64,000 bases of DNA. Origin: a virus. Its lineage: Duplodnaviria; Caudoviricetes. Positions 7,751 to 45,403 of the stretch are shown in pieces. The notes under the pieces are model-generated. The model made no database searches, was not told the origin of the DNA, and worked only from the letters and a program-made list of their open reading frames with translations. The stretch covers positions 61,232-125,231 of the IMG/VR virus record IMGVR_UViG_3300013105_000003, one strand, 5' to 3'. The translations under genes were made by a program, and so were the position numbers. The stretch's first letter is position 1. Each line of letters starts with the position of its first letter.

Positions 7751-7811
7751 GTGTGTTGTATCTCTCTAATTAAGACGATAATATAGATACCACCAGAGAG
7801 AAGGTACGGCC

Positions 7812-24435: not shown

Positions 24436-27400
24436 TTGACGACTCAGTGCAGCATGGTATTAATGTTCTTGTGCCTCTTGGTATCCTTATTCTATCAAGG
24501 GTGGAGCGGAATAGTGTCTCCTAAGCAGAAGCATCTTAGAGTTACAGCATCGTATACTTATGATGTTTTTATAGAAGGTGGTCTAGACATGGCTCTGGAC
24601 TCTGGAGAGTTTGCAGAACTTCTGGAAGACGCTATTGATGGAGTAGCTGTTGGTGGAGTTGAGGTAACCAAAGAGCCACGGTCTGGTCCCTATGTCACTC
24701 ATATTGGAATGGTAGAGTAGTGCCCTTAAAGCAAGTAGACTCCTATAGCTCTAAGATGAGCTATGCCGTAGACTGGGACAGTCTTAGTATGGAATTTAGT
24801 CCAAAGCTACCACAGTACCCTAACTCTAGAGAGTACTGGAAACTACGGTATGTAGCTATAGGTGCTCGTAACGTACAAAACTCATTAGAAACTACTTACG
24901 GTTACCTGTGGGGAGTAACTGTAGTAGGCTCCTTTAAGGATTCCTACCTGTACTCTCCATCTTGGTATAAGGATTACTTTATTGAGAATTATGATCCTAG
25001 GTATGGTATCAGCTGGGTAGCAAAGCTGTCAGGTACTGACGATATTAAATTAGCAAACTCTCACTCCTTTAGTGATTATGAATACTACTGGGGTGCTTTA
25101 GCAGAACATAGACGAGTTATCCATAGTGGATCAACTCCAGGATTTTTTGAGGGATGGTATGTAAATGCCTAGATATAAAGTAACAATTGAACTTACTAGT
25201 GTACGAGAAGTAACACGAGAGATTGATGCACTAGATGACTATGATGCAGTAACTTCTATTGTTGACTGGCATAAGTCAAATGATGAAGAAGTAACTCATT
25301 GGGTTTCTACAGAAATAAATGAATCTACAGAGGATATGTAAATAGCAGTGCTGAACGATAATATTGGTGGTAAATATAACCCACCAAAGGAACAGTTTGT
25401 GACCCTCAAGAACGAGTCATACCGTCGTAATAAGAATGAAGCTGACCACGATGATAACAAGATTCATCGTCGTAACGGAGGTTTCACTCCAGTAGCACAA
25501 AAGCTTAAGCCCGCTGGCAAGTGTAGTGCTGGGTATGCTTGGTATTACATTAATGGCAGTGACGTAGCTCAGCACATTCTAACACCTGCTGACGACGAGC
25601 AGACAAGAGCACACAAACTTTCTTGCTCAGTTGCTTGACACCTGTCTAAAGAACTGGTAAAGTGGTACCATGAACCCAAATACTGTACCACCTATACAAG
25701 CACGTAGAGACAGACCTGAGCCTGTTATCTCAGTTGACCTACAGGAGCTTCTACCTGTACTCATTTCTAATATCATTGGAGATGCTGCGTATCATCCACG
25801 ACTGAGAGCTAAGGCTATTGCAGAATTGTCTGCTGGTGGAGTGTTACGTACCGAGCAGCGAGTACAGCTGTCTACAGACATTGCTGCAGAAATGGCAGAG
25901 TTTGGTCACACTAAACTTGAGTTTACCCCTACCCAAGTGTTGTCTATTATAGCTCTTTTGCATGAGGCACTTGACGAGCTAGAGGAAGTGTAACTAATGA
26001 GTCAATACTTGAGTAGCACTCAGACCTGTGTCTATGTGGTTACTACTTATATTGATAATAAGTATGCTGGATCTAAGGTTTTCGCATACTTAGAAGATGC
26101 CACAGAGTTTGCAGAACTTAGAGGCGCTCTGGGGGACACAGAGAATAGTCTAAATTGTACTGTTACAAAATCCTTTCTTACTGTTACAAAAGAAACGGTC
26201 TGGCTGTATCGCTGAGAGCTTGACAGTAGGTACTAGCTAGGCTAGACTCTCACTATGAACGAAACACAGAACGTCTTCCTCGTTAACGTCTACACTTATG
26301 ACGCTCAGAATAAGCACGTCAATACCTTCATCTTTACTACTTCTGAGGCAGCTAGAAGGGCTGCTCTAGAGATTGAGCTTATGAATAGCAAGCTGAATGC
26401 TGATGTACTTGAGCAGCGGGTATTCACTTCTTTTAAAGATTGGGATAAGGCGTGACTAAGCCAAAGAAGGGTCAGACCTTCACTCACGACCACTTTGTTG
26501 ACACTAACTGGAAGCCTGAGCCTGGGCAGACGTGGAAGAACGATGCTCCTAAGGCTGAGATGGTGATTACTTCTGTGTGGGAGACTCTGGTATACTACAG
26601 CTTTGCTGATGGTAAGGGTTCATATGTTCTCGACCTAGACACCTTTATGAATAAGTTTGGTGAGCAGCTGTGAGTAATACTATCTGGCTAGAGGATGCTC
26701 CAGGAAAGGCTACCTATTTTTCCTATGGTGAAGAAGAGGATGAAGCTGAGTGGATTATTGAATGGTTCGATGATTCTCCTACTATTCCGCCTAATGTTTC
26801 CTACCTTGCAGAAGAGCTACTGACTGAGATTGACTGCATTACATGCTATCACTGTGGTCACGGGGTGGGTATGACTCTGGCTGGTGAAAATGATGAATAC
26901 ACACAATGGGAGTCTTGTGCTATAGTGGATAAGTCGTTTGACCAACAGTACGTAGTCTGTGATGAGTGCTATGACAAGGAATATGGGAATGAGTTATAAA
27001 CCTACTACATACACTAATGCTACTTTTGGTGTGCTCAAGACGCTTTCTCTCGATGAGCAAGTATATGTTACCCGCCTGATGCACTCTATTAATTCACAGC
27101 TTACAAAGACTGATTGGCTTGCTCAAGGTACTAGCCGAGTAGGTAGGATTGATGCTACAATCACTCTCCAATCTGGTTATGTAGCAGAGCTAGCCTACCA
27201 CGGAGGCTCTGTATTTCTTAAGTCTCTGGAAAAGCCTGAAGGGAAAGTAAATTAATGACTTTTATTATCTACGCGGCTGTAGTAGTCTATGTGGTTGCTG
27301 GCGCATTCTGTGCTAGCGACGGGTTTTTTAAAGCTAGAGATAAGAAGGTACCAACGGTAATTTGGGGGTACACAGAAGCTAATCTTATTAAGAGTTGGGA

Positions 27401-27716
27401 AGAAAAGAATCGCTGGCCCAATATCACAACAACTCCAAGGATCACTCTAGAGAAATTCTACCAAATTCAAAGAGAGAGTAGTCTGCGAGACGCTACTGAA
27501 GCAGATGCCCTAAGAGCACAAGCATACCGTCGTTTGTTCTGGTCTCCTGTGTGGCCTATACTCGTTGTAGGAGACGTTGTGCGAGACTATCAGAAGGCTA
27601 AGGCTGGAGAGAAAGTCTACCTACTGGAGCAGGCTGCTAAGAGTCTAGAGAAGGCCAGTGCTGAGAAGGATAGACTAGATACAGCCTACAACAATGCCAC
27701 AGGCTGTACTCGATAA
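24436..27716 (+). other. Block of small hypothetical genes with leaderless SigA promoters
   Basis: TTGACA-N17-TAAAGT (25635-25663, ATG 25670); TTGACA-N17-TAGACT (26220-26248, ATG 26255). Confidence 0.7.
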
Positions 27717-28109
27717 GGTTACAGCTGAGAAATGATGCCAGAAGAGATTAATACTCCTCTAGCAATTGCTGTGTGCTGCCGTGAGTGGAAGGTAGCAGCT
27801 TGGCAACCTATCAGTCGTTGTGGGTATTGTGGAGAACGGCCAGTCCTTACAGGAAGGTTAGCAGATGACAACTGATATAGTTGACCTACTCCAAGACTCA
27901 TGGTATGATTAACTACATAGTAACCAACCTACAGGCCAGCAGGAGTTTGCCGTGGCTAAAAAGAAAAAGCACAAAATATCAAATCCATACCTTGCAGCTG
28001 GGTTAGCTGCTATTGCATTTGGCAATGCTTGGGGTACTCACGCAGACCGACGCACTAAGCGTAACCGCAGTCGCCAGGAAAAGAACCGTAAAGCTATTAA
28101 GGATTTCGA

Positions 28110-28631
28110 GTGACTCAGTTTATATTTGTAGATACAGAGTCTGTAGGGGTGTCTCCGTACTTTGGAACTATGACAGAGTTTGGTGCAGTAGAGCTACTCA
28201 CTGAGAAATCATTTCATGGTGAGATTATTAAGTCTGTCCCTAGTAAAGAAAACCCTGCTATCCCTGAGATTACAGAAGACCTTACGGATAGTATGTACGA
28301 AGTTAAGCTTAACATCGTTATTGAGAGTTTTATGAGGTGGCTAAAGTCCTTCAATGATGAGCGTCTAGTCTTTGTTTCTGATAACCCTGCATGGGACTAC
28401 ATGTGGATTGCTTATGCATTTGATGTAACATCTGGTGTTAATCCATTCGGACACTCTGCACGGCGTATTGGTGACCTTTACGCTGGACTCTCTGGTAACT
28501 GGCGAAACACTAATAAGTGGAAAAAGCTACGGGTTACTAAGCACGACCACAATCCTGTCAATGACGCTCTAGGGAATGTAGAAGCTTTCAAGGCTATTCT
28601 ATTCCACTACGGACAGGAACTTCCTGAGTGA
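28110..28631 (+). CDS. DEDDh 3'-5' exoribonuclease (Rv2179c/RNase AS-like)
   Basis: FVDTE, SDNPAWD, NPFGHS.RRIGD, HNPVNDALGN. Confidence 0.85.
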   Translation: MTQFIFVDTESVGVSPYFGTMTEFGAVELLTEKSFHGEIIKSVPSKENPAIPEITEDLTDSMYEVKLNIVIESFMRWLKSFNDERLVFVSDNPAWDYMWIAYAFDVTSGVNPFGHSARRIGDLYAGLSGNWRNTNKWKKLRVTKHDHNPVNDALGNVEAFKAILFHYGQELPE

Positions 28632-28828
28632 CTTGTGTCAAGAGTTATTTCATGGTACACTTCTTGCATGGACACAGTAGAGATTCAAGAGTACCTAACC
28701 TCTAGCCACAAGGGTAGGGGAACCTCTGGCTATATTCTTCTCACAAACAACTTATTCTTTCATATCAAAGATGCTCGCATAATTGATGGAGCACTTGTTA
28801 TTGACAATCTTTATGGAACGGAAAAGAA

Positions 28829-29092
28829 GTGAAGATTTATAAGTATCCTGTTGAGCTTCTCCAGGAACAAAAGATTAGCCTACCTATCGAGTCTAAGGTG
28901 CGTCACTTTGGTACACAAGATGGTAGCCTTATGATGTGGGTAGAGCTAGATCCTGACCTAGAGCACGAAATCCATACTTTCTATGTGGTAGGCACAGGTC
29001 AGGAAATCCCAGAAGATGCTATTACCTACCACGGCACTGTTTACCTTAATTTCTATGTTCGGCACCTCTACTCGAATGGAACGTACCTGTGA
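28829..29092 (+). CDS. Small conserved phage protein
   Basis: KIYKYP...VVGTGQ.IP...YHGTV...HL motif. Confidence 0.65.
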   Translation: MKIYKYPVELLQEQKISLPIESKVRHFGTQDGSLMMWVELDPDLEHEIHTFYVVGTGQEIPEDAITYHGTVYLNFYVRHLYSNGTYL

Positions 29093-30464
29093 AGCTATTC
29101 TCATTGAAAGACTACGCTGAGTCTAAGACTAGTGCTCCTGAGTTTATTGGGGATATTTCCTCAGAGTACGGTAAGAAGCAAATCTACAAAATGGCTGAGT
29201 TCAATGGTCTAGTTACAGGTCTTGGAGAGTCAGCTACGGTAGTACCCTTTGGGATGGACTACGAGACTACGGTAGCTCTACAGCATATCCAAGAAACAAT
29301 CTTCAGCTACGGTGGAGGGTGCTACGTCACTGAGTGTGGAGAGGTTTACGCTATCAAGGATAACCTAGACTACTCATACCTAGATAACTCCGTAGACGAA
29401 GATGGACTATGGAGAGAATTCTACAACTACGAGGAAGAGAACAGTGCATGATGGATTTTCTTAAAGCCTTGGTAATTACAGCTCTCTCAGGTTGGGCCTT
29501 GGTAGCTACCCTCACACAAGGTGCTCCTGCCCTAGCAGTAGTTTGTAGTGTAGTGGTGCTCTACCTTAGTGGTCTACTTATGGGTATGGCTGTGACCATA
29601 TGGGCGGATAAACGATGATCCAAGACGACTATAACCCATACCTAGACCCTAATAATAAGCCTGCGTATATAGTAGAGGACGCAAATTCTAACAAGATGTG
29701 TACCTGTAGACCATCTACTAATAATCGGATTAAGACTCCAGGTATCTCTCGTAAAAGTATTAGAAAATGCAGGAAGCTGAAGGTATGATTTACTTTATCC
29801 TGACTGTAGTAATCCTGTCATTGACCATACTTAACATCACCTACGCGGTACGGTTGACACTGTGGTCACGTGCACTTCGTAGGGCTGATGCTAAGGAAGC
29901 TGCACGACTACACCACAGAGAGCCAACATGGCTCCTGGGTGTGAAAGTATATCGGTAAGGAATTAGGATTTACTGTGTTTGATGTAGAAATGCTGGATCT
30001 AACCAACGGTAAGAGAATCCCTAAAGAGTCTCTGGTAGCGTTAGATAAGCTAGAGGAGTCTTGGCCTGGAGCAACCTTCCACGGTGCTCGCCCTGCCATT
30101 GTAGCTGCTGTCATGGACGCTCTGAGAGATGTAGGATACATGGTATGAGCGAGACTCCACCTACTTTGGGATTCCGTAGACGCTGCTCTTGGTGCTGTGT
30201 GCAGTTGAGAGCATGGCAGCTAAACTCCTGCCGAACATGCCACGAGGATATCAAGTATAGATTCTCACCTAGGCACTTGCACGCCTCACGGTACGATGCT
30301 AAGCCTGATAAGTTCCCTACACTTAGGAAGGTCTGAAGTTGTCACGTAGAGAGTTTCTCAATAAGATGCTACGGTGGGCCAAGCCTAGACGTAAGTCACA
30401 CCTCAGATTGTCTGCCAACAAGATCGCGGCTGATGTAATCACTGTAGAGTTAAAAAACGATAGA

Positions 30465-30509
30465 GACAGCTAGGCTACTCACTATTTCTTGTGGAGTAGC
30501 CTAGCTGTC
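30465..30509. terminator. Bidirectional terminator-like hairpin at a convergence point
   Basis: GACAGCTAGGCTACTC...GAGTAGCCTAGCTGTC. Confidence 0.7.
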
Positions 30510-30820
30510 TACGGTAGAGGAAGTGCGCTTAGAGTCAGCGGTCCTTGTTGTCGATCCGTCGAAAGACTCTCGTCTCGTTGACGTAGAGGTCTCGCTCGAT
30601 CTTGGAGCGAGTTTTACGGACGGTCTTGTAATGCACGTCTCCGATACGGTCGTAACCCGCTGCCATTGCGTCTACAGCATCGTCGGGCAGAGTGACTGCA
30701 CGGCCAAGGTCGTAACCCTTTGTGAACTGAACCTTTGAAACGCTCATTTCTGTTGTTTCCTTTTCTGACTTACGGTTGGATTCCACAGCTTTGGTGCCCT
30801 GGTCTGTGGAACTGATGACT

Positions 30821-30871
30821 ACTTTACTCCGTCCATAAGGTCAAGTCAACACTCCGTCTCACATCGTGGAC
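30821..30871 (-). promoter_or_regulatory. SigA-type promoter with upstream IclR-like palindrome
   Basis: Minus strand GTCCACGATGTGAGAC-N6-TTGACT-N17-TAAAGT. Confidence 0.7.
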
Positions 30872-30944
30872 AGGAAATTTTCTAGGCACAGAAAAAGGCT
30901 ACGGTGGAGGGTATGTCCAACCGTAGCCTTTTCCATGTTTCTCT

Positions 30945-31214
30945 CTAGCGTGTTATCTCCATCCGTCGCAGAGCAACTAAGCAACGTTGTGCAGCTGCTG
31001 CAGCGTCCGGGTCGTCAGAGTTACTTGTGTTTGCGTAATACTTGCAGTCACTGATAAGGTCTGTCAGTCCTTCGTCAGTAAGCATTACTGTAATAGTCCG
31101 TGGTGACGATGTTACTACCGTAGTGCCTAGATGCTTTCCGATACGGTCGAACCAGTACCTTAAGTGCTTGGCAGGCAGCTTGACTGTTACGGTGTGCTTT
31201 GCCTTGAGTCTCAT
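30945..31214 (-). CDS. Hypothetical early protein
   Basis: ORF with AAAGGG SD and a downstream terminator at about 30892-30932. Confidence 0.6.
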   Translation of the reverse strand: MRLKAKHTVTVKLPAKHLRYWFDRIGKHLGTTVVTSSPRTITVMLTDEGLTDLISDCKYYANTSNSDDPDAAAAAQRCLVALRRMEITR

Positions 31215-31719
31215 AATAAGCTAAACCCTTTTCTTTAGTTGTGTCCTGCTACTAGCTACGGTAGCACCTAGGGTTAAGTTAGTCAAGTTGACACAGAGCA
31301 CTATATATGGTACGGTGAGGCTCCACAGACAACTAGATAGGTGTGATAATGACAAAGGTAAGAGTCACTAGCCTAGTCCGTATGGCAAATTCTAAAAGTG
31401 GTAACCCACAGTATATACTCAATACCGCTAGTGGAATGGTGCTTCACACTAAGCCTGACTCTACGGTCGGGTACGTGGCACAGGCTTTAGAGCAGTATTT
31501 ACTAGACGGTAATCCGTCAGTTTCTACTGAAATCACACTAGACAAAGACGGTATGGTAACACGTCTACTAGGCTACGGTGATTAAAATAAGCCTACGGTA
31601 ACACTAAAATAGCTCAGCTTCTATAGTATACTTAAAGTAATGACTATAGAAGCTGAGCTATTTTTATGCTCAAAAACAGAAGGTAGAAATTGATCCTATG
31701 AGAGTGTTAGTAGCGAACA

Positions 31720-32388
31720 ATGGAACAATATCCTATGACTAAGCCTCTACTATTAGATTTGTTTTGCTGTTCTGGAGGGAGTGCTGTCGGATATAGTAGA
31801 GCAGGTTTTACGGTAATAGGTGTAGACATTGATCCTATCTTGTCAGCTGATTATCCATATGAAATACACCACGGTGATGCTTTAGAATTCTTAAAAAGCT
31901 ACGGTGGAGATTTTGACGTTATCCATGCGTCTCCACCGTGCCAATCAAGCTCAGCACTCACTAAGGGCACCAATAAAGGCAGACAATACTTAGACCTAAT
32001 CCCTCAAACTAGGGAATTACTAGCAACGTTCAATGTACCTACGGTAATAGAAAATGTGCAAGGCGCTAAGGTACGGAGAGACTTAACCCTATGCGGTGAA
32101 ATGTTTAGCTTAGGTGTGCTACGGCATAGGTATTTTGAGATAGAAAACGCTACGGTGGAAGTGCCAGAGCACAAGGCACACCGTGGACGTGTTAGAGGTT
32201 GGAGACACGGTAAGTACTACGATGGTCCTTATGTTGCTGTCTACGGATTAGGTGGTGGAAAAGGTACGGTCCAAGAATGGCAGCAGGCTATGGGTATAGA
32301 CTGGACAGACAATCGTAAGTCTCTGGCCGAGAGCATACCTCCTGCCTATACGGAGTACATAGGTAATAGTTTAATAAAATCTATATAG
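31720..32388 (+). CDS. C5-cytosine DNA methyltransferase-like protein (start may be 31735)
   Basis: LLDLFCCSGG, HASPPCQ, VIENV, LCGEMF, RHRYFE, E(S)IPPAY motifs. Confidence 0.85.
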   Translation: MEQYPMTKPLLLDLFCCSGGSAVGYSRAGFTVIGVDIDPILSADYPYEIHHGDALEFLKSYGGDFDVIHASPPCQSSSALTKGTNKGRQYLDLIPQTRELLATFNVPTVIENVQGAKVRRDLTLCGEMFSLGVLRHRYFEIENATVEVPEHKAHRGRVRGWRHGKYYDGPYVAVYGLGGGKGTVQEWQQAMGIDWTDNRKSLAESIPPAYTEYIGNSLIKSI

Positions 32389-32411
32389 CCGGCCTATGTA
32401 TCCTGGCAAGA

Positions 32412-32463
32412 AAAAGGCACACACCGTAGAGAGAGGATTAGTAACCTACGGTGTGTGCCTTTT
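32412..32463. terminator. Bidirectional terminator
   Basis: AAAAGGCACACACCGTAG...CTACGGTGTGTGCCTTTT. Confidence 0.75.
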
Positions 32464-32577
32464 CTATAATGTGGTGATTAGTAACACTCAACCGAACCAT
32501 AGGCATTATGGCACTCTCACCCAATCCGCGTAGTGAGCTATTACTAATTCTTATGTCACGGAACACACCACAAATCT

Positions 32578-32892
32578 TTAAATACTCCTATGAGCAATTC
32601 CTGAGTTAGTGTACGGTCCGTACCTATCAATGGTGGAAAGCATGTTAGACCTACCTACGGGATTAGCACTGTGAACGCGAATAGCTACGGTGGGAAAGTT
32701 CCCAGACTCTGCCATGTAATCTACTAGCGCCGTACCGTCTCCACCATCGTAGGCAAACTCCCCTAGATCATGGTCTAGGCTAGCGTGAGTCACGGTGCCA
32801 GTCTCCAGGATACGGATAGCCTCACGGACAGACTTAGCATGCACCCAATTATCAGGGCACGGACGGATATCGTCTAACCATAGTTTTGTCAT
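32578..32892 (-). CDS. Cyclic-phosphate-processing receiver-domain protein
   Basis: LWLDD.RP.P..W, SLDHDLG, VHSANPVG motifs. Confidence 0.8.
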   Translation of the reverse strand: MTKLWLDDIRPCPDNWVHAKSVREAIRILETGTVTHASLDHDLGEFAYDGGDGTALVDYMAESGNFPTVAIRVHSANPVGRSNMLSTIDRYGPYTNSGIAHRSI

Positions 32893-33436
32893 TAGCTTTC
32901 ACCTTATTTAGAAGGTCTTTAGTTATGCTTTCCAGTGCATCCACAAATAGTCATACGGTAAGGGTTTTTACAATTACAATCTCCAGGACAAAAACAGCCT
33001 GTCTCTAGTCTAACATCTTCCATTAGAAGATAACCTCCGCATTACTCTCTGCAGCAAAGTCACGGACCCATGCACGGTCCAACTTTTCACCATTGCCAAA
33101 CCGACTAACGTTAAAGCCACCGTAGGCAGCAGTTTTACTATAGATAAATACCTTACCGTCACCTTCAACAAATGAGAGTCTAATGTCCTTTCCGCTGGGA
33201 AAAGTCACGGTGGCATAAATGGTACGCTTAGTCATTTTACTTTCCGCCCCACATAGTAGTAAGTTTGTCTGCTGTCATGGTACGGTGCAGAGCATTACCA
33301 ATCGGGCGGTAACAATCAAGGCATATTCCTCCGGGAAAGACAGCCAACTCGCTAATGGTATTCTTACACATAGTGCAATTAACCTTACGGTCGATAAGTT
33401 CCATTATTTCATATCCTCTCAGTTGTGTTTCTGTCC

Positions 33437-34865
33437 CTTAGTGGACAATGCATAGCCTAGCACACAGGTCTAGGCTACACACAATGCACTAAGTTCTAAT
33501 CCTTCCAAACGTTGGGACGGTTACGCAATTTGTAAAACTTAGGGTAACGATACCGTGACCATAAGTTGCGGAATACAGTAATCACATTTTTAGCTCCTCT
33601 CATTTGTTTGTCCTTAGTGGACAACTACCGACACGGTACCATGTATCCGTGTCGGAAGCAATGCACTAAGAATTATCAAATTTTAAATTTAATGCCGGCT
33701 ATATACCTCTCATGATATACTAAACTAGGGAATTCAATCGGTGCCAAGAATCAATTGGCTTTTCATTGTCGTAATAACGAACGGTAACACGCCGTAGGAT
33801 AGCAGAACAATCCTTATTTGTGCATTCCTGCACCGAATAAGAATTAGTAACGCTAAAGCCTTTAAAAGACCACTTGTGTTGTTTATGATCCTTTGCTGTA
33901 CCGTCGATCAACTTAGCGTAACGGTCTCCGAACGTCCACACAAAATGATGATAGTCGAAATAATCTCGCGTAGACATTAGGGGGTCGGTACGGTAAAGCA
34001 TTTCGATAAACACGCCCCATTCGTCAAACGTTGCGGCTCGGTAATCATTACCGTTAGACATACGCGACGAATTACCGGACAGCTTAATTTCCCATGCTTT
34101 ATCATGAGTACGCGAACGATGCTCCGTAGCGGTCTCCAGTGTGACACCTGCCACCGTGGCGGCATTGTCGATAACGCTACTGTCTACCGTAGAGCTAGTG
34201 TGAAAACGCATTGTATAATCCTCTCATGGTTTGCCCTTAGTGGACAATTCCGACCATAGTTTTAGCTATGGTCGAAACAATTCACTAAGAATTCAATCTT
34301 CTTCCACTAGGTTATTAACGATAGTGGAATGAGTAAACCCATAACTATCGAGTAACTTAGATATTTCTTTTTCAATTGCGACAGACTCCCAACCAGAACA
34401 CTCTACCGAAAAGGCTATTTCATACATGTTATTCTCTGGCATTATGTAATCCTCTCATATGGCTACGGTGCATCAATTGATTGATACAATACCTAATACA
34501 TTCCCAGGAATGCACTAGATACAATGCCAATTAACTAACACGGACAGAACCACAACGGCGTGTCGCAGAACGGACAACGTTTGCGGTCTGTCATGTGCTC
34601 TCGCGTCGGTTCAAATGACGCGAGCGTGTCACTCATGCCATTACGAACAGTGGCACGATTACGCCGCCTCTGCTGCCTTTTCGCAATGGTAACTGCTCGC
34701 CCAATAGCACGCGATTCACGCGAGTTAGAGCGCCACTTGCCATCGTTAAGAGACAACTCAACACGCTTAGCTGTCAAGGTAGACATAGTGTAATCCTCTC
34801 ATTTTAGGCGTTTATTAACGCAATTTCACTAACGGATTGCTCCGTTAATGAAACAATGCTAATAA
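33437..34865 (-). repeat. Five intergenic long hairpins with a conserved ATTG/ATTG internal loop, each followed by a TGAGAGGA SD leader
   Basis: 33437-33493, 33613-33670, 34236-34289, 34473-34534, 34812-34865; G-U pairs favour the minus strand. Confidence 0.75.
33720..34211 (-). CDS. Hypothetical early protein
   Basis: GAGAGGA SD; AATFDEWG.F...L motif. Confidence 0.7.
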   Translation of the reverse strand: MRFHTSSTVDSSVIDNAATVAGVTLETATEHRSRTHDKAWEIKLSGNSSRMSNGNDYRAATFDEWGVFIEMLYRTDPLMSTRDYFDYHHFVWTFGDRYAKLIDGTAKDHKQHKWSFKGFSVTNSYSVQECTNKDCSAILRRVTVRYYDNEKPIDSWHRLNSLV

Positions 34866-35576
34866 CTCACCTGCCTATCTTTATAGCTATCCACGTTCCG
34901 ATTGCCATTATTAGAGCAATGACTACAGGATTAGTTAGCATTAAATAGCCTTAGTAAAGATATGGTATTGGCGCGGCGTAGTGTTTAGGTACTCACGTCC
35001 GGCATTGATAGCTGCAACGCGCATAACACTATACCGACGACAAATGTCCGCAACCTCTGAGAATAGCGGAGTATCGTCAATATCTGACAACTCACTAACG
35101 CTAAGCTTTGTAAGATTAATCATTGGGTATCCTCTCATTGTGCTAATTGGTTAATGCCAAACCGCACCGAAAAGGCTACGGTGTGACATTAAACAATTAG
35201 AAATGTTTCATGAGATAAGGATTATTCCACTATTCAAGAATCAAATAACTAGCGTGAAAGATACTCACTCCGAACTAATCGGATATCTAACACTTATTAG
35301 GTTGTGAATTGGGCGCTTAGCTAGTGGTGGATTCTTATTACTAGCCATTGTCATTTATACACGCGACCTAACTACTGTCTGGCACACCTACGCCTGGACC
35401 CAATTCTATTAAGTTTTTACCTTTAATTAGACCTTTAGTTAGTTACTGCCTTTTACTTATCTTGCAATACCGGACAACCTAGCACGTTTAGAGACTATGG
35501 TCAATCCCTCTCGCCATGCGATATTAGCGGGATATCTGTAGTGTCTCCGTATTGTGTTGTTTTTCCGATAGGCAGA

Positions 35577-35637
35577 ACATTACCGGCACTTGTGGAGTCT
35601 GTCTAGCCCTGTCTCAAAACATCTCATATCGTGAGAT
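35577..35637 (-). promoter_or_regulatory. Leftward early promoter with IclR-like palindrome
   Basis: Minus strand ATCTCACGATATGAGAT-N15-TAGACA-N17-TAATGT; a second leftward promoter TTGACC-N17-TAGGTT lies at about 35476-35504. Confidence 0.7.
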
Positions 35638-35787
35638 GCATAGGCCGGCTATACAACCTGGAACCGTTGCAATTGCAACGAATTTGGTCACTTTGTACCA
35701 ATCTTTGTACTAGCCGGCCCGGTCCTGTCTTATCTGCGCATACACGCGAATAGCAGACACTAGGGCAGACTGTCAAGGTCTAGGCTA

Positions 35788-35843
35788 TGTGACGTAGGTC
35801 ACACTGTAGAGACTTGACACTCCGTAGCGGCATGCCTTAAGTT
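35788..35843 (+). promoter_or_regulatory. Promoter with perfect CRP/GlxR box
   Basis: TGTGA-CGTAGG-TCACA, 10 nt, TTGACA-N18-TAAGTT. Confidence 0.8.
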
Positions 35844-35885
35844 TCTCATATCGGAACAAAACACAACCAAACGAAAGGCAAAACA

Positions 35886-36257
35886 ATGGCAAACTCTAAT
35901 GCGGTCCGTGCATGGGCATCTACTCACACCGACGAGGCCGGAAAGCCTTATGCACTCGCAAACTCTCGCGGTCGATTGGCATTCGATGCGATCAAGGCAT
36001 TCAATGATGCACATCCCGACGACCCTTACAACGTGTCGGAGAACGTACCTCCGTCGCAGCTTTATACGCCGCGAGTTGTGAGCGTTAAGACTTTCAAGTC
36101 TGGCACTTCCAAGTCTGGCAAGACTTATAAAGTGCCGGTAACTAAGTCTGTGAATCTGGCAGACTTCCGAACGTGGGCCGTCGCTCAAGGTCACAAGGTC
36201 GGAGCGCGTGGGCGTGTCTCGCGTGAGTTGCTGGAGAGTTACGCCGCTACTGTCTGA
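35886..36257 (+). CDS. lsr2: Lsr2-like protein made of two DNA-binding (RGR) domains, without the oligomerisation domain
   Basis: AVRAWA...NSRGRL...AFNDAH and FRTWA..QG.KVGARGRVS....Y. Confidence 0.8.
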   Translation: MANSNAVRAWASTHTDEAGKPYALANSRGRLAFDAIKAFNDAHPDDPYNVSENVPPSQLYTPRVVSVKTFKSGTSKSGKTYKVPVTKSVNLADFRTWAVAQGHKVGARGRVSRELLESYAATV

Positions 36258-36267
36258 CAGTAGGGCA

Positions 36268-36314
36268 GGATTAGCCTAAATGGTAGGTTTATCGGTTCGA
36301 TTCCGACTAATCCA
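36268..36314 (+). ncRNA. 47-nt mini-tRNA-like element lacking the anticodon arm
   Basis: GGATTAG/CTAATCC+A acceptor, CCTA-AATGG-TAGG hairpin, TCGG-TTCGATT-CCGA T arm. Confidence 0.55.
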
Positions 36315-37231
36315 CTAGGCGATCCCGTACTAATGCGATTACTGACATTAGGCGACGATTGCCACCAATTTACAAACAATTGCACCAAATGAGAGGATTA
36401 GGGTAATGGTCAAGTATCTTGAATTTGAGAGTGTGCAAGGATTCCAAATTACGCTCAAAACTCCACGTAATCCTAGCGTTAGCGGATATGGGCGAAAGAT
36501 TCCGACTAGCGGAATGGTTAACTATAATGGTCGCTGGCACCGTGTCTACGTTATGAATTACGGAAATTCTGGCAGTGCATACATTGTCAGTAAAGGTCAA
36601 GAATTGTTCTTGGATATTGACACCGAATACATCTATCAAGGTGTCACGCCGAATTCTTGGAAATGAAAGGATTTAACTAATGGATTACTCACTTTATGAA
36701 TGGTCACGCGATAAGGCTAATGGTACAGTCTCCGTTACTTATTTCAATGGAAGTGGAGCAACTAGGCAAGGCGCAGACGTTATCGCACGTAGCCTAATCC
36801 CTAATGCAAGGCTTTACGCGAAAGGTGAGACTTTCGGCGTGGCGGGTAAGAATCTCAGACTATATTGGGACATTGAAAGGATTAGCTAATGGCAACGCTT
36901 TACGATGAAACAAATATGCGCAAAACTCCAGGGAATTGGAAGAATCTTTTCGAGCTACTGGTAACGGAGTATATGAGACATCCTCACATTAAGCGATTAG
37001 CACTAAAGTCTAAAAGTGGTGCGGAACGTTCCGCTTATGCCACTTGCAAGAATCAGACACGCGGAGGGTATGGCATTTATACAGGGACAAAACGACTAAG
37101 GCTAGAATTGTCAGAATCAGAACTAATCGAATTCAATGAGGAATATCCCTTACCAGAGTAAAGGATCAAACTAATGAGAGTGCAGCGGAGGCATTCGCAG
37201 ACATGGAAGTGCGAGAGTACCCGCTGCCGTA

Positions 37232-37282
37232 GTCTCACGATGTGAGACGCTACTAGACACACTGGAGTCTGTCCGGTAATGT
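37232..37282 (+). promoter_or_regulatory. Promoter with IclR-like palindrome
   Basis: GTCTCACGATGTGAGAC-N5-TAGACA-N17-TAATGT; same arrangement at 38645-38694 (N16-TAAAAT). Confidence 0.75.
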
Positions 37283-39688
37283 CTTCTATATCAACAAAAA
37301 CACTCCACTACCTAGTTAAAGGATGAAACCATGCAACTCTCAAACTATGGCCGCGCGGAATTGTCAGACTTGGATCATGTTTACCTGACAATGGAAGACA
37401 TTAGGGAAATTGCGGACAACGATCCCGATTCTCATTGGTTTAATTCGCTTAAGCCATTTGGAGTTAGTGAGCAATCACTCTCCAGTGTCGTGAAAGTTTC
37501 CGCGACCGAATACCGTTTTGTCTGCCGAGAATATGACTCATTTGACCAGACCACTAAGTCATATCGAGTGCATTCTGTGAAATTGTCGGTAGGGTATCGT
37601 GGGAAGTCTCCGGAAAGTCTGCGCACCTATTGGCGTGCCAATGTGAGCGCGTGCAGTGATCCGGAATCGGATCGAACCTATTTCAGCACGCGGAAGGCAG
37701 CAGAAAAGGCACTGCCGAACCTAGTCCGCGATTTCGATTAGTCGAATTGTTTCACTAACGGGTAATCCTCCGTTATCCGTTAGTGGAATTGTTCACCTAA
37801 TCAACCAATGATTGAAAGTAGGTTAGACAATGTACGAAGCACTCATTGCACAGGCATTCCAACAAGCATATGACTACAAGCGCCAAACATATCCAAATTT
37901 GGATATGTGGGATTATATCTCAGAGCATATTTACCAATATGGAAATGACCGACGTTATAAGCTGCATTTACTGGCAGCTAGCACTAGTTTTAGGTCTGCT
38001 CTTGTCAAGTATCATGGTATCAGCTATTACGTAGATCATGACTACCCAACTAACACATATTCGGTAACTCGCCGGATTAGGTAAGTCACTGGAATAGACA
38101 TATAACTAACGACATGTTTAATCGACGTAATCCCAAATTGACCATAAAGCGCCGTATTAAGATAGTGCAGCACCATTACAACGAAATGACGCGAGCTGCA
38201 CTAAATGACGCGCTAACCTACGAACAGAAACAATCCGAGATAACTCACCATGCTCTAATGGTGGAGAAATACAAGACAGAACTTTTCTACACAAACGATT
38301 GAAAAGGAATAAAAATATGCGTACAGCCCTGGAATTGGCACTAATGGAAATTGCGTCGGTAGGTATGGCATGGGAAGGGGAGAACGACTCACCGACCGGA
38401 AGTTTTGCGCTCATTACCATTAATGACGAGACGCGTAGCGATCCATGCGAGGATATCGACGCTAACGATTGGCTACAGTCCACTACTGGAGAGGTTCACT
38501 ACATCATCCAATGGGACTCTAACGGCCAAACGTGGGTAACAGAGCATGACAACGCGCACGACGCCAGCTCACACCTAGCAGAGCTAACGGCAGAATATTA
38601 CGCGTGGGATTATCAAGGTGTGGACGATCTAGCTATCTAGGGTAGTCTCACGATGTGAGACGCTACTAGACAGACTCAAAAAACACTGTAAAATCTCAAC
38701 TATGCTAAAGACATTCGGAGTCCTCGCCACCCTCGCAGCTATCGCGCTAGGTCTGTATTTTGCGCCCAGCGCGATAGCTGCACATTTCGACCACACTTCA
38801 GTCTCCTACGTCAGTAGTTCAACACTCGACGCAAAGCTAGCGCGCAATGCTCACAGTGTTGCAACGCGCGGAGGTGCATTTCTAGACAATGCCGATATCT
38901 CACGCGCTAACATCGTTTCAGCTCACCAAACGGAGGTTAAGTAATGTTTAGGGTAGTGAGAGACAATAGCACGACAACTAGTGACGTAGAGACTAGCCTC
39001 AGTCTTAATGATGCTAGGGAGTTGGCAGAGTTACATGCGAGTGAGCACGCGGAACGAATTGACGTTAGCTATTGGCAAGTAGGCTTCAGTAGCGACGCAT
39101 TTAGATTTATTACCAATAACGGGACAACTGTAACCTATAAGGTCGAAAAGGATGAAACGAAATGACCATGTATGCGATTGTTATTAGTTCGGTACGACTG
39201 ACTAAGGACGGATATTCGTCAAGTAGGCAGACGCCTACGTTTTACCTTGATTCTAAAGTGCAAGGGATTGTAAATGCTAAACATGCCGCATTGATTGCGC
39301 TAGACATAGCTAACACATTCCACGCTACAGAAAACAATGAGAGGATTAGTGTCTACGCGATTAACAATGACGATGGAACCGACAACTATCATATGGGATG
39401 GAAGGATGAAACGAAATGAAAGACTATGAGCTGCCTACACTAGCAGAACGTGCCGACATTGTGGAACGTGCAAACTCTCGCGGATTCACTTTTAGTGGAC
39501 ATCCTGCAGTCTTGGCAGGCTATAACCTGCCATACCCTCGCGTGCATGTTAAGGGATTCACTAGCGGAGGTGCAGAGGTGTCATGGTACCTAGCAGAGCG
39601 TCTAGCGTCTGGAGAGACTACTAACGTAAACGGGTAGGGCAAGAGACACGCGAGGACGTAGTTAGCGCGTTAGAGAGTGCGTCCAAGG

Positions 39689-39743
39689 TGTGACGTAGGT
39701 CACACTGTAGAGACTTGACTTTGCCAGACTCTGCACTTAGGTT
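39689..39743 (+). promoter_or_regulatory. Second promoter with an identical CRP/GlxR box
   Basis: TGTGACGTAGGTCACA, 10 nt, TTGACT-N17-TAGGTT; leader TCATATCGGAACAAAA shared with the 35788 promoter and 41024. Confidence 0.8.
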
Positions 39744-40833
39744 TGGTCATATCGGAACAAAACACAAGACCAGAGCTATTCTACCCAAACGATTGAAAAG
39801 GATTAAAAATATGCGTACTTCCCTGGAATTGGCACTAATGGAAATTGCTTCAATCGGCATGGCATGGAAAGCTACTGACTTGACCAATGAATCCCTCATT
39901 GCTCTCATGTCGTGCGATTGGGAGGGAGAAGGTCTCTCACTTTACATGATGGGACTAATCCAAGAAGAGTTCAACGCACGTAACCTTTCCAACTGAGAAA
40001 AGGATATGTAATGGAACACCGAATCAAGAGCACTACTCACAACTTTTCTAGTGTCGTCATTAACTGCACATGTGGAGCTAACTTTACCGGAAACTCATAT
40101 GAGGCAGAGTACAACGACGTAAACGAACGGCAGGCATTGGGAGAGTTCCGCTCACACGTAAGCCTGCAGGCTCGCATGGCGATTGCAAGGATCTGTAATG
40201 GGAACGTCTAAAGGATCGACAACGCGCGTTATTGACTCTGGCGAGTTACCTAGTGACTCCACACCGAAACAATGTTTTTGGGGGTGTGGGTACACTACAC
40301 TACGCACAACGCGCAAATTTAATGCACTAGATCAATTGGTGACAGTGCCAGAGTGCGGATACTGCGCCCATGATATCGAATTAGCTGATTCTGTCCGCTC
40401 TGTATGAATCGAAAGGATATAACGAAATGAGTTTAACGCTTAGGGAACGTGCACAATGTGCAATGATTGACGGACTAATGTTCGGCGATTGGTTCGACAC
40501 GCGCAATTGGGTAGACGATGAAAAGGATTCTGCTCTGCCTAAGTCATACGAGATTAGGGTGTTAGAAGATTCTGACGAACTAATCCCTATGACAGAATGG
40601 CGAAAGGTTACGCCGCGTGACATTACTAAGGCACTCCGTTACATAGCGTCGGCTGGCAACCCTGCTAACCTAACTGATGACATTGTGGAATCGTGCAAGG
40701 CATTCTTGAATGATCCTGATTCTGCTGCAGCTAGTCGTTTCGATTCAATTTGTGCCGATGCTGCACTCCAGATAATCACGATGGGAAAGGTCGAATTTGG
40801 TTAGCCTAGGCAGGTGAGCCATTGTCGGGAGAC

Positions 40834-40852
40834 ATAGGTTAGGCTAACCTCA
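40834..40852. promoter_or_regulatory. IdeR/DtxR-family iron box
   Basis: ATAGGTTAGGCTAACCTCA, 17/19 to consensus TTAGGTTAGGCTAACCTAA. Confidence 0.7.
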
Positions 40853-42196
40853 CTTTACCAGGACTGTACCATCCTTTGTACCATGCCCTGGAGCGCCGGC
40901 CTAGATACATAGTTGTCCTATGCAACTAATTATGTACTAGTACAAACAAGTGTGCGACTGTCCACGATGTGAGACAGCTCCAGACAGGAACTAGACAACC
41001 TACTGTCTGTCATGCTTAGATACTCATATCGGAACAAAAACAAGCGGAGGGCTAAGACAATGAACAACATTCTCGCAATCTATCGGGTAGGCGGAGCAGT
41101 CCTCACGTTGTCTCACACGTTCACAGACACACCTAAGTATCAGGTGCATGTCAATGAAACGTTGCTAATGTCCTCACATGAGTTTGGAATGGTGGAGCCA
41201 TTCTATTACGAGACATTGCAAGATTACGCGGTTGATGAAATTCAACCTACTCGAATTTTCGTTAACTACTGACAACTAGTAGCCTTTCCCATTGTCGGGA
41301 GACATAGGGAACATCGAAAGGATTAGGTAATGGAAAATATCTATATCGTTCGTCTGGTCAAAGATGGGATTGACGGAGCTATCGTCGGAGTATTCCGCAA
41401 TGAGTCCGACGCGAGGTCGGAATGTGCTAGACAGAATGCCGACAATTTCGTTGGCTGTCTGTCTGAAGTGCAGCGTTATAACGTAATCTAAATGCCTTGC
41501 ATTTATCCGATCTAGTATCGGGTAAGTGTTGGATATTTAGAAAACATCGAAAGGATTAGGTAATGGGAACAAAAGTAATGGCAATTGTAGAATCTCCCAC
41601 TAACGGAGAAATTTACGCGATTCCCTTTGCTAATCAGTTTGCAGCTCAAGATTGGGCAGATAAGCATGATAACGAAATTCTCACTATTGCCATTTATCCA
41701 CTAAGCAACGCGCGCGCAATGCTCGCAATGATCGAAAAGGATTAACGAAATGTCACACTCTACAGATATTGTCGGATATACCTACAAGGCAGACAATTAC
41801 TGCACTGGTTGCATTATCGACGCATTGCCTACTGGGGAGGGTGAGGAATTCGATGGATGGAAACTAACTAGCGGCATTCGTATGTCTACCGAGAAGAATC
41901 TGACAGAGCTTGCCTACGCGTTCGGCATTGATCGGAACGACGAATATTCGTTTGACTCTAGCGAATTCCCTAAAGTCATATTTGCTTACATGCTAGATGG
42001 TCCGCACTACTGCAGTAACTGTCGATGCGAACTAGTTTGGTAGCTAGCGCAGGCAGGCAGGCAGGCAGGGACAGAGCTGGCAGGCTAGGACGTTGGAATC
42101 CTGCCAGCCTTGGCTAGTTTCGTCGGTAGGGTTGCGCTGCAGCTGGGAAGGTGTACACTGAGACACAACACACCGACACAAGCGGAGGGCAGTCTC

Positions 42197-43375
42197 ATGG
42201 CAACCTACACACTTTCACCGGCAGAGTTTGCACTCACTGTTGAAAAACTCGCCAAGGTCAATGAGCGGGCAGAGCGTAAGGGATTCACCGGCAGAGTCTC
42301 TGTTAGTGGTCGGACTGAGACGCGCAAAGATGACTTTGGCTATACTTACGCCGTTGTCGTCACTGAGATTATCGGAGACGCCCCGAAATACAATGGATGG
42401 GAGTTTCTGGCAGCAGTAGACACAGTGGGAGACAATTTCGTTATCCGTGGCGCTGCAGGGACAGACATAGACAACATTGATCGGTCAATGCTTAAGGCTG
42501 GACAGTGCCAGCACTGTAACATCGAAAAGTCTAACCGAATTCACACCTACCTAGTTCGCAATGAATCGGGAGAATTTAAGCAGGTTGGCTCTACGTGCAT
42601 TCGTGATTTCCTTGGCTTGAATATCTTCCCTGGAATGATTCTAGAGTCTGACGTAGACGAAATTGTCGGAGGCTTTAGCGGCATGGCGCGTGAGTACACT
42701 CCGGAAACAATTGTCTCTGTCGCATGTGCTGCAGTTAAGAAGTTTGGTTATGTTTCATCGCAGGTGTGGGAACGTGAGAGCACGCGCACAACTGTAGAAC
42801 GTTTTCTATACCCTGCTTCGCAAGGTCAAGCACAAAAGGATGATCTTGCGTTGCACGCTGAGCTGTCTCCGCTAGTTGATACTGACAAAGCGGAGACAAT
42901 CATCGAAACGCTCACAAGTGCATTCTCAGACAGGGGAGGATATCAAGGTAACCTTTACGCCGTTCTGTCAGGTGACGTGGTGACTTCCAAACATATGGGC
43001 ATTGCAGTCTCTGCCGTCATTGCTTATGACAAACTAGTGGAAGGTAACAGGCAAGCTGCAGTCTGGGCAGATGAAAAGGCAGCACGCGAGGCTAAGGCAG
43101 CATCTATCGACTACGTAGGGACAATCGGAGAAAAGATTACTATTACCGGAATCGTTTCTAAGAATATGGTAATCGAAACTATGTATGGCTTTAGTCATCT
43201 CGTCATTGTGGAAGGTGACAATTTCGTCGCTAAAATGTTCACTACTGCAGGATGGTCGGAGAGTGATTCTGCCGACGTAGATAAGACAGTTACTCTCACT
43301 GGAACAGTCAAGGCACATGACGAATACAATGGCACTAAGCAGACAGTCCTCACTAGGGCAAAGCTAGTCAAGTAG
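42197..43375 (+). CDS. Conserved early phage protein with Zn motif (CQHC...VGSTC) and C-terminal OB fold
   Basis: GGAGG SD before ATG 42197; G.IGEKI...GTVK.HDEY.G.KQT.LTR OB-fold pattern. Confidence 0.75.
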   Translation: MATYTLSPAEFALTVEKLAKVNERAERKGFTGRVSVSGRTETRKDDFGYTYAVVVTEIIGDAPKYNGWEFLAAVDTVGDNFVIRGAAGTDIDNIDRSMLKAGQCQHCNIEKSNRIHTYLVRNESGEFKQVGSTCIRDFLGLNIFPGMILESDVDEIVGGFSGMAREYTPETIVSVACAAVKKFGYVSSQVWERESTRTTVERFLYPASQGQAQKDDLALHAELSPLVDTDKAETIIETLTSAFSDRGGYQGNLYAVLSGDVVTSKHMGIAVSAVIAYDKLVEGNRQAAVWADEKAAREAKAASIDYVGTIGEKITITGIVSKNMVIETMYGFSHLVIVEGDNFVAKMFTTAGWSESDSADVDKTVTLTGTVKAHDEYNGTKQTVLTRAKLVK

Positions 43376-43387
43376 TTTTTACTAGAT

Positions 43388-43424
43388 AAGGCACTAGGTA
43401 ACTAACACTTACCTAGTGCCTTTT
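43388..43424 (+). terminator. Intrinsic terminator
   Basis: AAGGCACTAGGTAA...TTACCTAGTGCCTTTT. Confidence 0.8.
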
Positions 43425-43439
43425 CGTATGCCCATATAT

Positions 43440-44510
43440 AGGCATTCCCTGCAGAGCACGTCCCTAGATCCTTCCCTAGTGCCCTCTGTATCCCTGCCCT
43501 GTATCCCTGCCCTCACACGTTCCCTAGTGCTCTCATATGTGCCTATATGCGCGCGTGAGAGCACCTCTGCCTATACAGGCCCACCTAGTAGCCTGCCTAA
43601 GCTAATAGATCCTCACAAGCGCATACATGAGCACACACACACATGAGCACATGAGCTGAGACACTGCAGCACACAAGCAACTAATCATAATGATAATCAT
43701 TATCAATGCACTTAGCATGAGACACTGCTATGTGTCAATGATATTTCTTAATGAGTATCAATCTCATTAGAGCTAACATATGCATGTATGTGTTGTCAAG
43801 TGCATGCACACAATCAATCTAAAGTCAAGTCTCATATCTCTAAGCACATAGTCTAATGTTTGTCAATGCAGCTAGCTAAGTCTCTGCACTGATTGAGTCA
43901 ATCTCATGTAAGCCTGTCTAACGCGCTAACTCTGACGCAATGACTCATGATGCCTAAACGCTCTACAACTCTCTTAGATTGGCTCTCATGAGTTTCTAAG
44001 ATACTTTCAAGGCTTTAGAGACTCTCAACACTGCAGCAGACACGCGAGACAGAGTGATTACACCTATCTCTAACGCACGCGTACGCGAATAGCAGCTAGG
44101 TAGGTATCTGTCAAGGGAAAAGTCCAGGAGATTCCCATAACAGTAAAATTTCCTGTTGTCAAGTGTTTTAGCAGGAAATTCTGAAAATATTCTCGAATAG
44201 CATATGAAAGATTTACTGTCAAGCCGCTAGCACACAATAAAATGTATGTCAATAGGTTGGCGTGAGTTAATTTCTTTTCATGATGTGAGCTATGTTTGAA
44301 AATAATATAACATAGGCCGGCTATGGTGTTATTTAAAACATAGGCCGGCAATATATCTAGAGAGCACAATCTCCTGGCTTTGTCAAGTGCTAGAAATTAT
44401 GAGTTTATCCCTGCCCCAATTTGCGAGTAATTCCCATGCAATTGTCTATAAAAATGCCCCCGGGGTGAACCAGTAAATGAATTGATTTTATTTGGGGCCG
44501 GGTGTCCGTT
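43440..44510. repeat. Non-coding repeat-rich region, probable genome end / packaging region
   Basis: Periodic CCCT tract, CTCAT/ATGAG repeats, TGTCAA array, CCCCCGGGG at about 44457, between convergent gene blocks. Confidence 0.55.
43687..43705. promoter_or_regulatory. Fur/Zur-family box
   Basis: ATAATGATAATCATTATC matches 18/19 of GATAATGATAATCATTATC; perfect 7-1-7 TGATAAT-C-ATTATCA. Confidence 0.7.
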
Positions 44511-44562
44511 GTGGGACAACTCTAAATTTTAGTGCTAGGGAGTAATATAAACATATTAATAA

Positions 44563-45099
44563 CTATGGCTTAGCTAGACCTATTACTGAAGAGAGTTCTC
44601 TGGTCTTAGTACTACCAAGACGATGTACTCTATCCTTGTATGTCTTACTTCCCCAGCCGTATTCTTTCCGTAAACCACCAGAAGGAAGTTCTACAAGGTC
44701 TCCAACCTGTAACTCTGGTTTTTTATCCCATACATATACGTAGCCCTTAGAGGTCTCAATTATCTGTTTACCGTCGTGGGTATGTGTCTGAAATCCAGGA
44801 AGAGTCGTTCTAGTTGCTTCTTGGAGAGAGTCTAGTTTCTCCTGTAGTTGCTGTACTTGACTCTTTAGAATATTAATACTGTCCAGACTACTCAGGTACT
44901 GGTCTGCTTTACCAATCTCGTAAGCTCTGTAGAAAGCATCAGAAAATTTTTGGTGCGTTGGTGTAGTATGAATAGGACAAGGTAAATTGAAATCCTTACC
45001 TAGAATTTTTAGAGGTTGAGTAAACCAGTCCTGAGCACCATACACTAAGTTCCTACAAGGTTTTCCTGACTTAGTAGGATGGTTACACCTATGAGTCAT
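44563..45099 (-). CDS. Hypothetical protein with N-terminal C..T..G.PC motif
   Basis: RCNHPTKSGKPCRN...CPIH; AAGGTAAG SD. Confidence 0.65.
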   Translation of the reverse strand: MTHRCNHPTKSGKPCRNLVYGAQDWFTQPLKILGKDFNLPCPIHTTPTHQKFSDAFYRAYEIGKADQYLSSLDSINILKSQVQQLQEKLDSLQEATRTTLPGFQTHTHDGKQIIETSKGYVYVWDKKPELQVGDLVELPSGGLRKEYGWGSKTYKDRVHRLGSTKTRELSSVIGLAKP

Positions 45100-45403
45100 G
45101 CTTACCTTACCTTATGTAGTATAGAATCTAGCTGGTGGTCTGTCATAGCTACAGAGTCTACCACAAGTACAACAGTACAGGCAAGAAGTTACTCCTCTAC
45201 CTGGCTTTCAACTAACGCTAGCAGCTCTGCATGGACACTAACGTACTCTGATTCTGCCTTCTTAAATCTCTCCAATAAATTTTTTGGGACTTTAGCTCGT
45301 ATCATGCCATAATAGTCTGCCATTTTTTCTTCGTCATAAATCTCTAAACAAGGGTACATCTCATCTACGTCCCAGGAAATATCTACTAGTTCTTCATCCA
45401 TTA

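Follow-up and report, generated by a model that had tools for sequence, protein, structure and literature searches.

Oriented Chi sites, which are read by RecBCD entering from a DNA end, have been described in several phages. The lambdoid phage LLS carries 23 Chi sites, 20 of them in the active orientation and concentrated near the right end, phage MD8 carries 32 against none, and at least eight active-orientation sites occur in 62 of 68 lambdoid phages without recombination modules (PMC12315714). In phage P1 the Chi-dense regions coincide with the virion ends and the terminal redundancy, and the DNA is circularised through recombination between the repeats that depends on RecBCD (bioRxiv 10.1101/2021.07.08.451572). 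Described here is a field of the heptamer CTACGGT in an uncultured phage (Duplodnaviria; Caudoviricetes) known as IMG/VR record IMGVR_UViG_3300013105_000003. The stretch analysed, hereafter the window, comprises 64,000 nucleotides and is the second half (positions 61232-125231) of a single phage contig of 125,231 bp with a G+C content of 44.8%. As in LLS, MD8 and P1, a short asymmetric oligomer is present in many copies, mostly in one orientation, within one part of the genome, and is laid over genes regardless of G+C content. In those phages the word is a proven host Chi with a mapped DNA end, whereas the word reported here is a candidate; it is also denser, at about nine core copies per kb, and a recombinase is encoded by the phage itself.

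All 22 copies of CTACGGT listed in a first-pass annotation of the window (17 on the + strand and five on the - strand, between positions 29234 and 35182) were found at their coordinates. The enrichment is local and not genome-wide, as these are 22 of the 27 copies in the genome; the window holds 25, and dinucleotide shuffles of it gave 5.9 +/- 2.1 copies and never more than 11. CTACGGT is part of a broader motif, whose true core is (GC)TACGGT(R). Between positions 29000 and 35500, TACGGT occurs 31 times on the + strand and five times on the - strand, compared with 13 and 26 times in the remaining 118.7 kb, and its + strand density in this zone is 44-fold that of the rest of the genome. The shorter ACGGT was counted 46 times on the + strand and 13 times on the - strand. 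Among single-base variants the enriched form is YACGGT, with CACGGT enriched about 16-fold in the zone; TACAGT and TACTGT show no enrichment. Alignment of the 46 + copies revealed an A/T-rich 5' flank followed by G-C-T-A-C-G-G-T-R, with no more conservation out to 45 bp. The longer form GCTACGGT (11 copies on the + strand and one on the - strand in the zone, 0 and 1 elsewhere) and TACGGT (p ~7e-40) ranked top when positions 29100-35200 were compared with the rest by a zone-against-rest statistic. A fuller consensus with a G-rich 3' end, GCTACGGTGG, is represented by six copies; it reads like the Chi of E. coli, GCTGGTGG, with AC inserted, which is a resemblance only.

The zone straddles the convergence of a long rightward gene block with a leftward block. 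In the gene model built for it, rightward genes extend up to a C5 cytosine DNA methyltransferase gene, two small leftward genes are embedded in this block at 30535-31214, and the leftward block occupies 32578-35123. Along the zone the + strand density is 4, 8, 11, 10, 8, 4 and 1 copies per kb. It had been proposed that the field is 6 kb long and stops at the divergent promoter region; true copies do extend to 35182, but the field fades at about 34.0 kb, where the base composition changes. Since no + excess was found in 33720-35123 or in the control genes at 26452-28832, the supported field is 29168-33990. Within 30-34 kb the gaps between copies (mean 105 bp) are more even than random, with a coefficient of variation of 0.53 against 0.96 (p = 2e-4), and the spacing analysis detected neither helical (10-11 bp) phasing nor a fixed period. 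Even spacing of this kind agrees better with selection for coverage than with a structured protein array, and a helically phased nucleoprotein array is ruled out by the lack of phasing. An array of iterons or tandem repeats is likewise ruled out, because the flanks are unrelated and the spacing varies from 20 to 242 bp without periodicity. Reverse-strand copies do not exceed the number expected from codon shuffles. Of the five reverse heptamers, those at 30920 and 32423 are there because they form the complementary arms of terminator hairpins.

The + copies occur in all three reading frames (e.g., ACG GTx, xAC GGT and xxA CGG T), in sense and in antisense, and in nearly all spacers of more than 50 bp. 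Genes contain two thirds of the copies, and ten of the 31 TACGGT copies are intergenic, in 1.9 kb. Mapping onto the gene model thus bore out the earlier statement that genes of both orientations as well as intergenic DNA contain the motif. Codons were shuffled among synonymous positions within genes or across the zone, with the ten intergenic copies held fixed, and were also redrawn from the codon usage of the phage. The enrichment persisted: the 31 + strand copies of TACGGT compare with means of 15-17 and a maximum of 24, and none of 2000 shuffles reached 31, so that a coding artefact is ruled out. The excess of ACGGT over the codon nulls is given for each group of genes in Table 1. In the leftward genes at 32578-33404 the + copies are on the antisense strand; the orientation is therefore tied to the DNA and not to the direction of transcription. 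Among threonine codons in the rightward genes of the zone, the rare CpG codon ACG accounts for 20%, compared with 8% in reference genes.

Further evidence comes from the methyltransferase gene. Nine homologues, one of them at the same G+C content, contain 0-2 motif copies where this gene contains seven. At conserved Thr-Val and His-Gly positions the codons that make the motif (ACG GTx, CAC GGT) are used in this phage alone, and amino-acid changes also contribute. The copies therefore arose on the spot and were not acquired along with the gene. Ten loci that encode homologous enzymes, 49-66% identical (in phage Trina and on nine contigs of IMG/VR), contain neither an ACGGT nor a TACGGT field, and the search for the enzyme matched only unrelated phages of high G+C content, which lack a field. 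Inheritance of the field together with the methyltransferase gene is thereby ruled out. A 1,199-bp contig from another metagenome, Ga0157370_10439903, is 98.75% identical to window positions 32257-33454, which shows that the phage population recurs across samples; this variant keeps all 14 copies (either orientation) and has 15 differences elsewhere, a comparison of low statistical power. Taken together, the field is a real and very strong polar signal at the level of DNA, overprinted on coding sequence as had been suggested: it survives the shuffles, ignores frame and gene orientation, and rests on synonymous choices that are absent from homologues.

Fields of a host Chi word were also found in the terminal repeats of two large lytic phages of 130-150 kb. 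In Staphylococcus phage K (KF766114.1), all 40 copies of GAAGCGG, the Chi of S. aureus, are located in the two terminal repeats of 8,486 bp (1-8486 and 139832-148317), with 13 on the + strand and seven on the - strand per repeat copy; the 131 kb between the repeats contain none, and the count for the backwards control word was 0. A published statement that S. aureus Chi is confined to the repeats of phage K was not found. In Bacillus phage SPO1 (NC_011421.1, 1-13185), GAGCGG, which is the B. subtilis Chi AGCGG with a 5' G, occurs 15 times on the + strand and nine times on the - strand of the 13.2-kb terminal redundancy, against 0 and 2 times in the next 37 kb; the corresponding counts for AGCGG are 29 and 17 against 22 and 18. 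In the zone-against-rest statistic the host Chi was the top 7-mer in K and second only to T-runs in SPO1. In both phages an early-gene stretch of 8.5-13 kb holds the host Chi almost exclusively, in coding and intergenic DNA. The zone described here resembles these repeats in its small genes and many strong hairpin terminators, and it has converging blocks as in SPO1. Its strand bias is stronger (3.5 to 1, against 1.7-1.9 to 1 in K and SPO1) and its field is shorter, with a higher density of copies. In K and SPO1 the repeats have been delimited by experiment or comparison, and the words are known Chi sequences of Firmicutes, whereas the zone is only presumed to be a terminal repeat.

An actinophage of similar size and low G+C content, Rhodococcus phage Trina (MF668286.1; 139 kb, 44.7% G+C), has an exact direct terminal repeat of 2,860 bp (1-2860 and 136403-139262). 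GCCCGGA, the heptamer most specific to the repeat, is present there in five copies on the + strand and one on the - strand, against three and five in the unique part of 133 kb. Its + copies, at 814, 1448, 1838, 2170 and 2685, are evenly spaced, and GCCCGGA is regarded as a candidate for an end-associated polar word in an actinophage. The local clustering of an oriented, GC-rich heptamer is shared with the field described here; the word itself differs, the copies are far fewer, and Trina is no more than a distant relative, with 26% identity in the terminase. At 127.5-134 kb Trina has a cluster of a separate, GGATAAGTTATG-like motif.

With its core TACGGT and fuller form GCTACGGTR, the word is a short (5-8 nt) asymmetric oligomer in 31 to 46 copies, and its bias to one strand (31 to 5 for the hexamer) holds regardless of gene direction, the + excess being present in leftward genes as well. 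The field is tentatively read as a set of oriented Chi-like sites for an end-processing helicase-nuclease of the host, located in a probable terminal-repeat or early region, and the chances of this reading are put a little short of even. The sites (core TACGGT, fuller GCTACGGTG) would be read on one strand by a host enzyme of the RecBCD, AddAB or AdnAB class. The stretch that bears them, with its small, independently terminated genes in two converging blocks, would be the terminal repeat of the phage or DNA adjoining the virion end. An enzyme entering at an end to the right of the field would move leftwards and meet the + sites from their 3' side, whereupon it would stop degrading and pass the DNA to recombination; the incoming genome might in this way be protected and circularisation or concatemer formation helped. 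The + orientation predicts such a DNA end to the right of the field, and the anatomy is like that of the K and SPO1 repeats. The first-pass annotation had named protein loading during DNA entry, translocase or Chi-like sites, and methyltransferase targets as candidate functions. Of these, the Chi-like function is favoured by the published and the newly tested phage precedents, a phage gene for an FtsK-type translocase was not found, and protein loading during DNA entry would be compatible with a Chi-type function.

Several observations weigh against Chi-like sites. The phage encodes a UvsX-like recombinase (genome 57058-58260), an SbcD-like nuclease and an exonuclease, and thus does not lack a recombination module as LLS does; published Chi-rich lambdoid phages are typically without recombination genes (PMC12315714). 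For actinobacterial AdnAB no Chi is known, and the enzyme was suggested to be Chi-independent (PMC5314763). The ends of the contig overlap by 123 bp, which indicates a circular assembly, and the terminal position of the zone is only inferred. The terminase gene is about 36 kb from the zone on the circular map, and the peak of + strand density lies 3-5 kb from the nearest candidate end (the non-coding DNA at 35.2-35.9 kb) and not at that end. No cluster of TACGGT is present in five distant relatives with terminases 38-48% identical; two of these were scanned de novo in full, and no comparable field of any word was detected, only a coding tandem repeat. Microbacterium phage Magritte, a cultured distant relative, looks circularly permuted. 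Magritte (OR553905.1, 87000-102000) has a weak + strand excess of CGCAG, with up to 27 copies per 3 kb against about 6, and over 12 kb the + strand has no copy of the complement CTGCG; this excess may be codon-driven, as most copies are framed xxC GCA G or xCG CAG.

The main rival to Chi-like sites, an unlikely one in our judgement, is that the copies are duplex-binding sites for a phage or host protein that coats the 5-kb stretch as a polar barrier or organiser, for example as a roadblock to replication forks or transcription where the late and early blocks converge, or as an anti-silencing boundary. A short degenerate element with flank preferences is typical of protein sites, the distribution of copies is bell-shaped and centred on the two small orphan genes of odd orientation, and the field lies where transcription units converge and base composition changes. 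Actinophages also use dispersed asymmetric sites with orientation-dependent action, namely the stoperators of mycobacteriophage L5, reportedly described in 1997 by Brown et al. Stoperators are 13 bp long, mostly intergenic, spread genome-wide and oriented with transcription, whereas the sites described here are shorter, fall largely within genes, do not extend beyond 5 kb and take their orientation from the DNA strand; L5-type stoperators are ruled out by the use of the same strand in both transcription directions and by the share of copies inside genes. Polar 8-bp words read by a DNA translocase are also known, in KOPS/SRS and in the TraB recognition repeats of Streptomyces plasmids, but KOPS occur throughout the genome and change strand at dif, and the clt loci are compact. 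Neither a ParB gene nor an FtsK/SpoIIIE-type gene was found in the phage genome, which rules out a phage ParB or FtsK translocase as the reader. No DNA-binding fold or family was found among the zone proteins, and we know of no precedent for about 45 protein sites over 5 kb, so that protein binding is left without a candidate protein, phasing or precedent.

The other rivals each conflict with at least one result. Methylation had been suggested, with the C5 methyltransferase gene lying at the centre of the field: the copies, of which this gene is itself full, would be targets of the enzyme and form a densely methylated island marking or regulating the region, and the motif does contain a CpG in an otherwise CpG-depleted genome. 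This suggestion found no support and is considered very improbable, given the ten homologous loci without a field, a motif that is asymmetric and requires its central G (which also rules out a palindromic ACNGT site), and the lack of an evident benefit in concentrating the phage's own methylation sites; small C5 enzymes usually read short palindromes. A signal in RNA, with CUACGGU in rightward transcripts as the site for an RNA-binding protein, RNase or small RNA, would agree with a bias of about 25 to 2 towards the mRNA strand in rightward genes and with the RNA-repair genes of the phage (RNA ligases, kinase, cREC_REC protein). It is nevertheless extremely improbable, as the same DNA strand is enriched in leftward genes, where it is antisense, and transcription of the + strand at 32.6-34 kb would not be expected, the units being bounded by strong bidirectional terminators. 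Complementarity of CUACGGU to 16S rRNA was considered and dropped since the strand logic fails in leftward genes. The field could finally be a passive patch with no present function, either inherited from a word-rich donor phage or left by a local mutational process. Distant relatives are without the field, and phage genomes are mosaics, which is how patchy Chi maps in lambdoid phages were explained (PMC12315714). A passive origin is still quite improbable: the zone has the CpG-context signature of the main genome except that ACGG is enriched 3.3-fold, the even spacing speaks for selection, as does the use of a rare codon, and no donor-like genome was seen among the matches listed in two IMG/VR pattern scans.

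These two scans looked for three nearby copies, and the matches listed comprised tandem repeats in coding sequence, a set of iterons and a repeat family with longer units; none was homologous to this phage. A 17,192-bp IMG/VR record, an unrelated phage fragment with 36% G+C, has four CTACGGT copies in a spacer (1572-1636 in flipped coordinates), 21-22 bp apart and iteron-like. Scans of IMG/VR with single proteins (a 163-aa zone protein, the RNA ligase and the terminase) revealed no close relatives. With a terminase profile many relatives of 125-150 kb were detected at 26-48% identity, and terminase homologues 55-80% identical occur on Logan and ENA contigs. A literature search by motif sequence returned primers only.

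The features of the field and its surroundings are summarized in Table 1.

Table 1. Coordinates of the CTACGGT field, its parts and adjoining features in the window (ACGGT counts on the + strand, observed against expected under the codon nulls)
Feature	Position	Strand	Details
Core field	29168-33994	+	44 ACGGT (29 TACGGT, 15 CTACGGT); consensus GCTACGGTR; mean spacing ~105 bp
Outlying intergenic copy	34463-34469	+	GGCTACGGTG
Outlying intergenic copy	35176-35182	+	AAAAGGCTACGGTG, same 14-mer as at 30892; last before 0.7-kb non-coding divergent region
Upstream control genes	26452-28832		ACGGT: no excess
Rightward genes	29089-30473	+	ACGGT: 9 observed, 1.7-3 expected
Two small paralogous leftward genes (70 and 89 aa)	30535-30747 and 30945-31214	-	Common ...(Y/F)DRIG... 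peptide; ACGGT in 30535-31214: 4 observed, 1.4 expected
Bidirectional terminator-like hairpin	30886-30938		Arms are motif and complement; -25.3 kcal/mol, z = -5.0
Sigma-A type promoter (TTGACA, 17 bp, TGG-TACGGT)	31288-31316	+	Ahead of gene 31349-31585; copy at 31311; only convincing case
Rightward genes	31349-32388	+	ACGGT: 11 observed, 2-5 expected
C5 cytosine DNA methyltransferase gene	31720-32388	+	222 aa; 7 sense-strand ACGGT copies
Bidirectional terminator-like hairpin	32404-32472		At convergence of rightward and leftward blocks; motif in arms; -31.4 kcal/mol, z = -7.5
Leftward genes (cREC_REC domain protein and two small open reading frames)	32578-33404	-	Motif on antisense strand; ACGGT: 7 observed, 1.4-4.0 expected
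Leftward block, later part	33720-35123		ACGGT: no excess
Adjoining domain of different composition	34000-46000		CpG not depleted, ACGG rare; field stops here

The possibility that TACGGT serves as the -10 box (TANNNT) of sigma-A promoters was rejected, since only one of the 31 copies has a -35 element 16-19 bp upstream; across the TACGGT copies there is no information content upstream of position -3. The two paralogous leftward genes are situated at the densest part of the field, have the + copies on their antisense strand and are bracketed by strong bidirectional terminators. Their proteins matched no family, Atlas entry or fold, and the AlphaFold models were poor or generically ferredoxin-like; the idea that they are DNA binders was dropped for want of such matches. 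A cassette is repeated ahead of leftward genes, at 33405-33500, 33590-33670 and 34218-34290. In it the outer inverted repeat CTTAGTG...CACTAAG encloses a variable hairpin, and the ribosome-binding site GAGAGGA comes next; its part TTGTCCAC resembles an actinobacterial DnaA box.

The main genome is CpG-depleted, with observed/expected ratios of about 0.5 for CpG, 0.17 for CGCG, 0.33 for GCGC and 0.34 for CCGG, and GCCGGC is absent from about 107 kb of it. In the early-looking domain of about 12 kb at 34000-46000, CpG is normal, CGCG is 1.9-fold and GCGC 1.6-fold, and ACGCG occurs 38 times on the + strand and 15 times on the - strand; seven copies of GCCGGC lie between 31.7 and 46.8 kb of the window. 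This domain looks exempt from an apparent avoidance of restriction sites in the rest of the genome. On the right side of the divergent non-coding region, the nearest gene (35886-36257) encodes an Lsr2-like protein with two RGR DNA-binding domains. On the basis of this gene and of the actinophage relatives, the host likely belongs to the phylum Actinobacteria. Genome contigs were searched for the host with the ribonucleotide reductase, without a match, and with the terminase profile, which matched only two phage contigs binned in proteobacterial metagenome-assembled genomes. These contigs of the same terminase family, one of 126,252 bp, are in bins labelled Cellvibrionaceae and Burkholderiales, which is probably mis-binning and no guide to the host. 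At 54558-54642 of the window ARAGORN called a tRNA with the anticodon CTA (labelled Pyl), possibly an amber suppressor or an aberrant tRNA.

A bolder proposal, which is possible but rather doubtful, is that GCTACGGTG (core TACGGT) could be a control sequence of the Chi type, the first for an end-processing enzyme of Actinobacteria (RecBCD or AdnAB), packed in a phage terminal repeat, and that the repeats of large lytic phages may in general report host Chi words across phyla, as in K and SPO1 and perhaps with GCCCGGA in Trina. If so, host Chi words would be readable straight from phage genomes. The confinement of Chi to the repeats of phage K, nearly matched by GAGCGG in SPO1, suggests a general way to read the host Chi and to locate terminal repeats from sequence. 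For a possible Chi-like control of DNA-end processing in Actinobacteria, a phylum from which no Chi is known, the field offers a concrete candidate word; present about 45 times (as the ACGGT core) in one orientation within 5 kb, it is open to simple assays. Should the reader not be a nuclease, the field would still rank with the densest overprinted signals known from phage DNA, and would suggest an unrecognised polar DNA machine.

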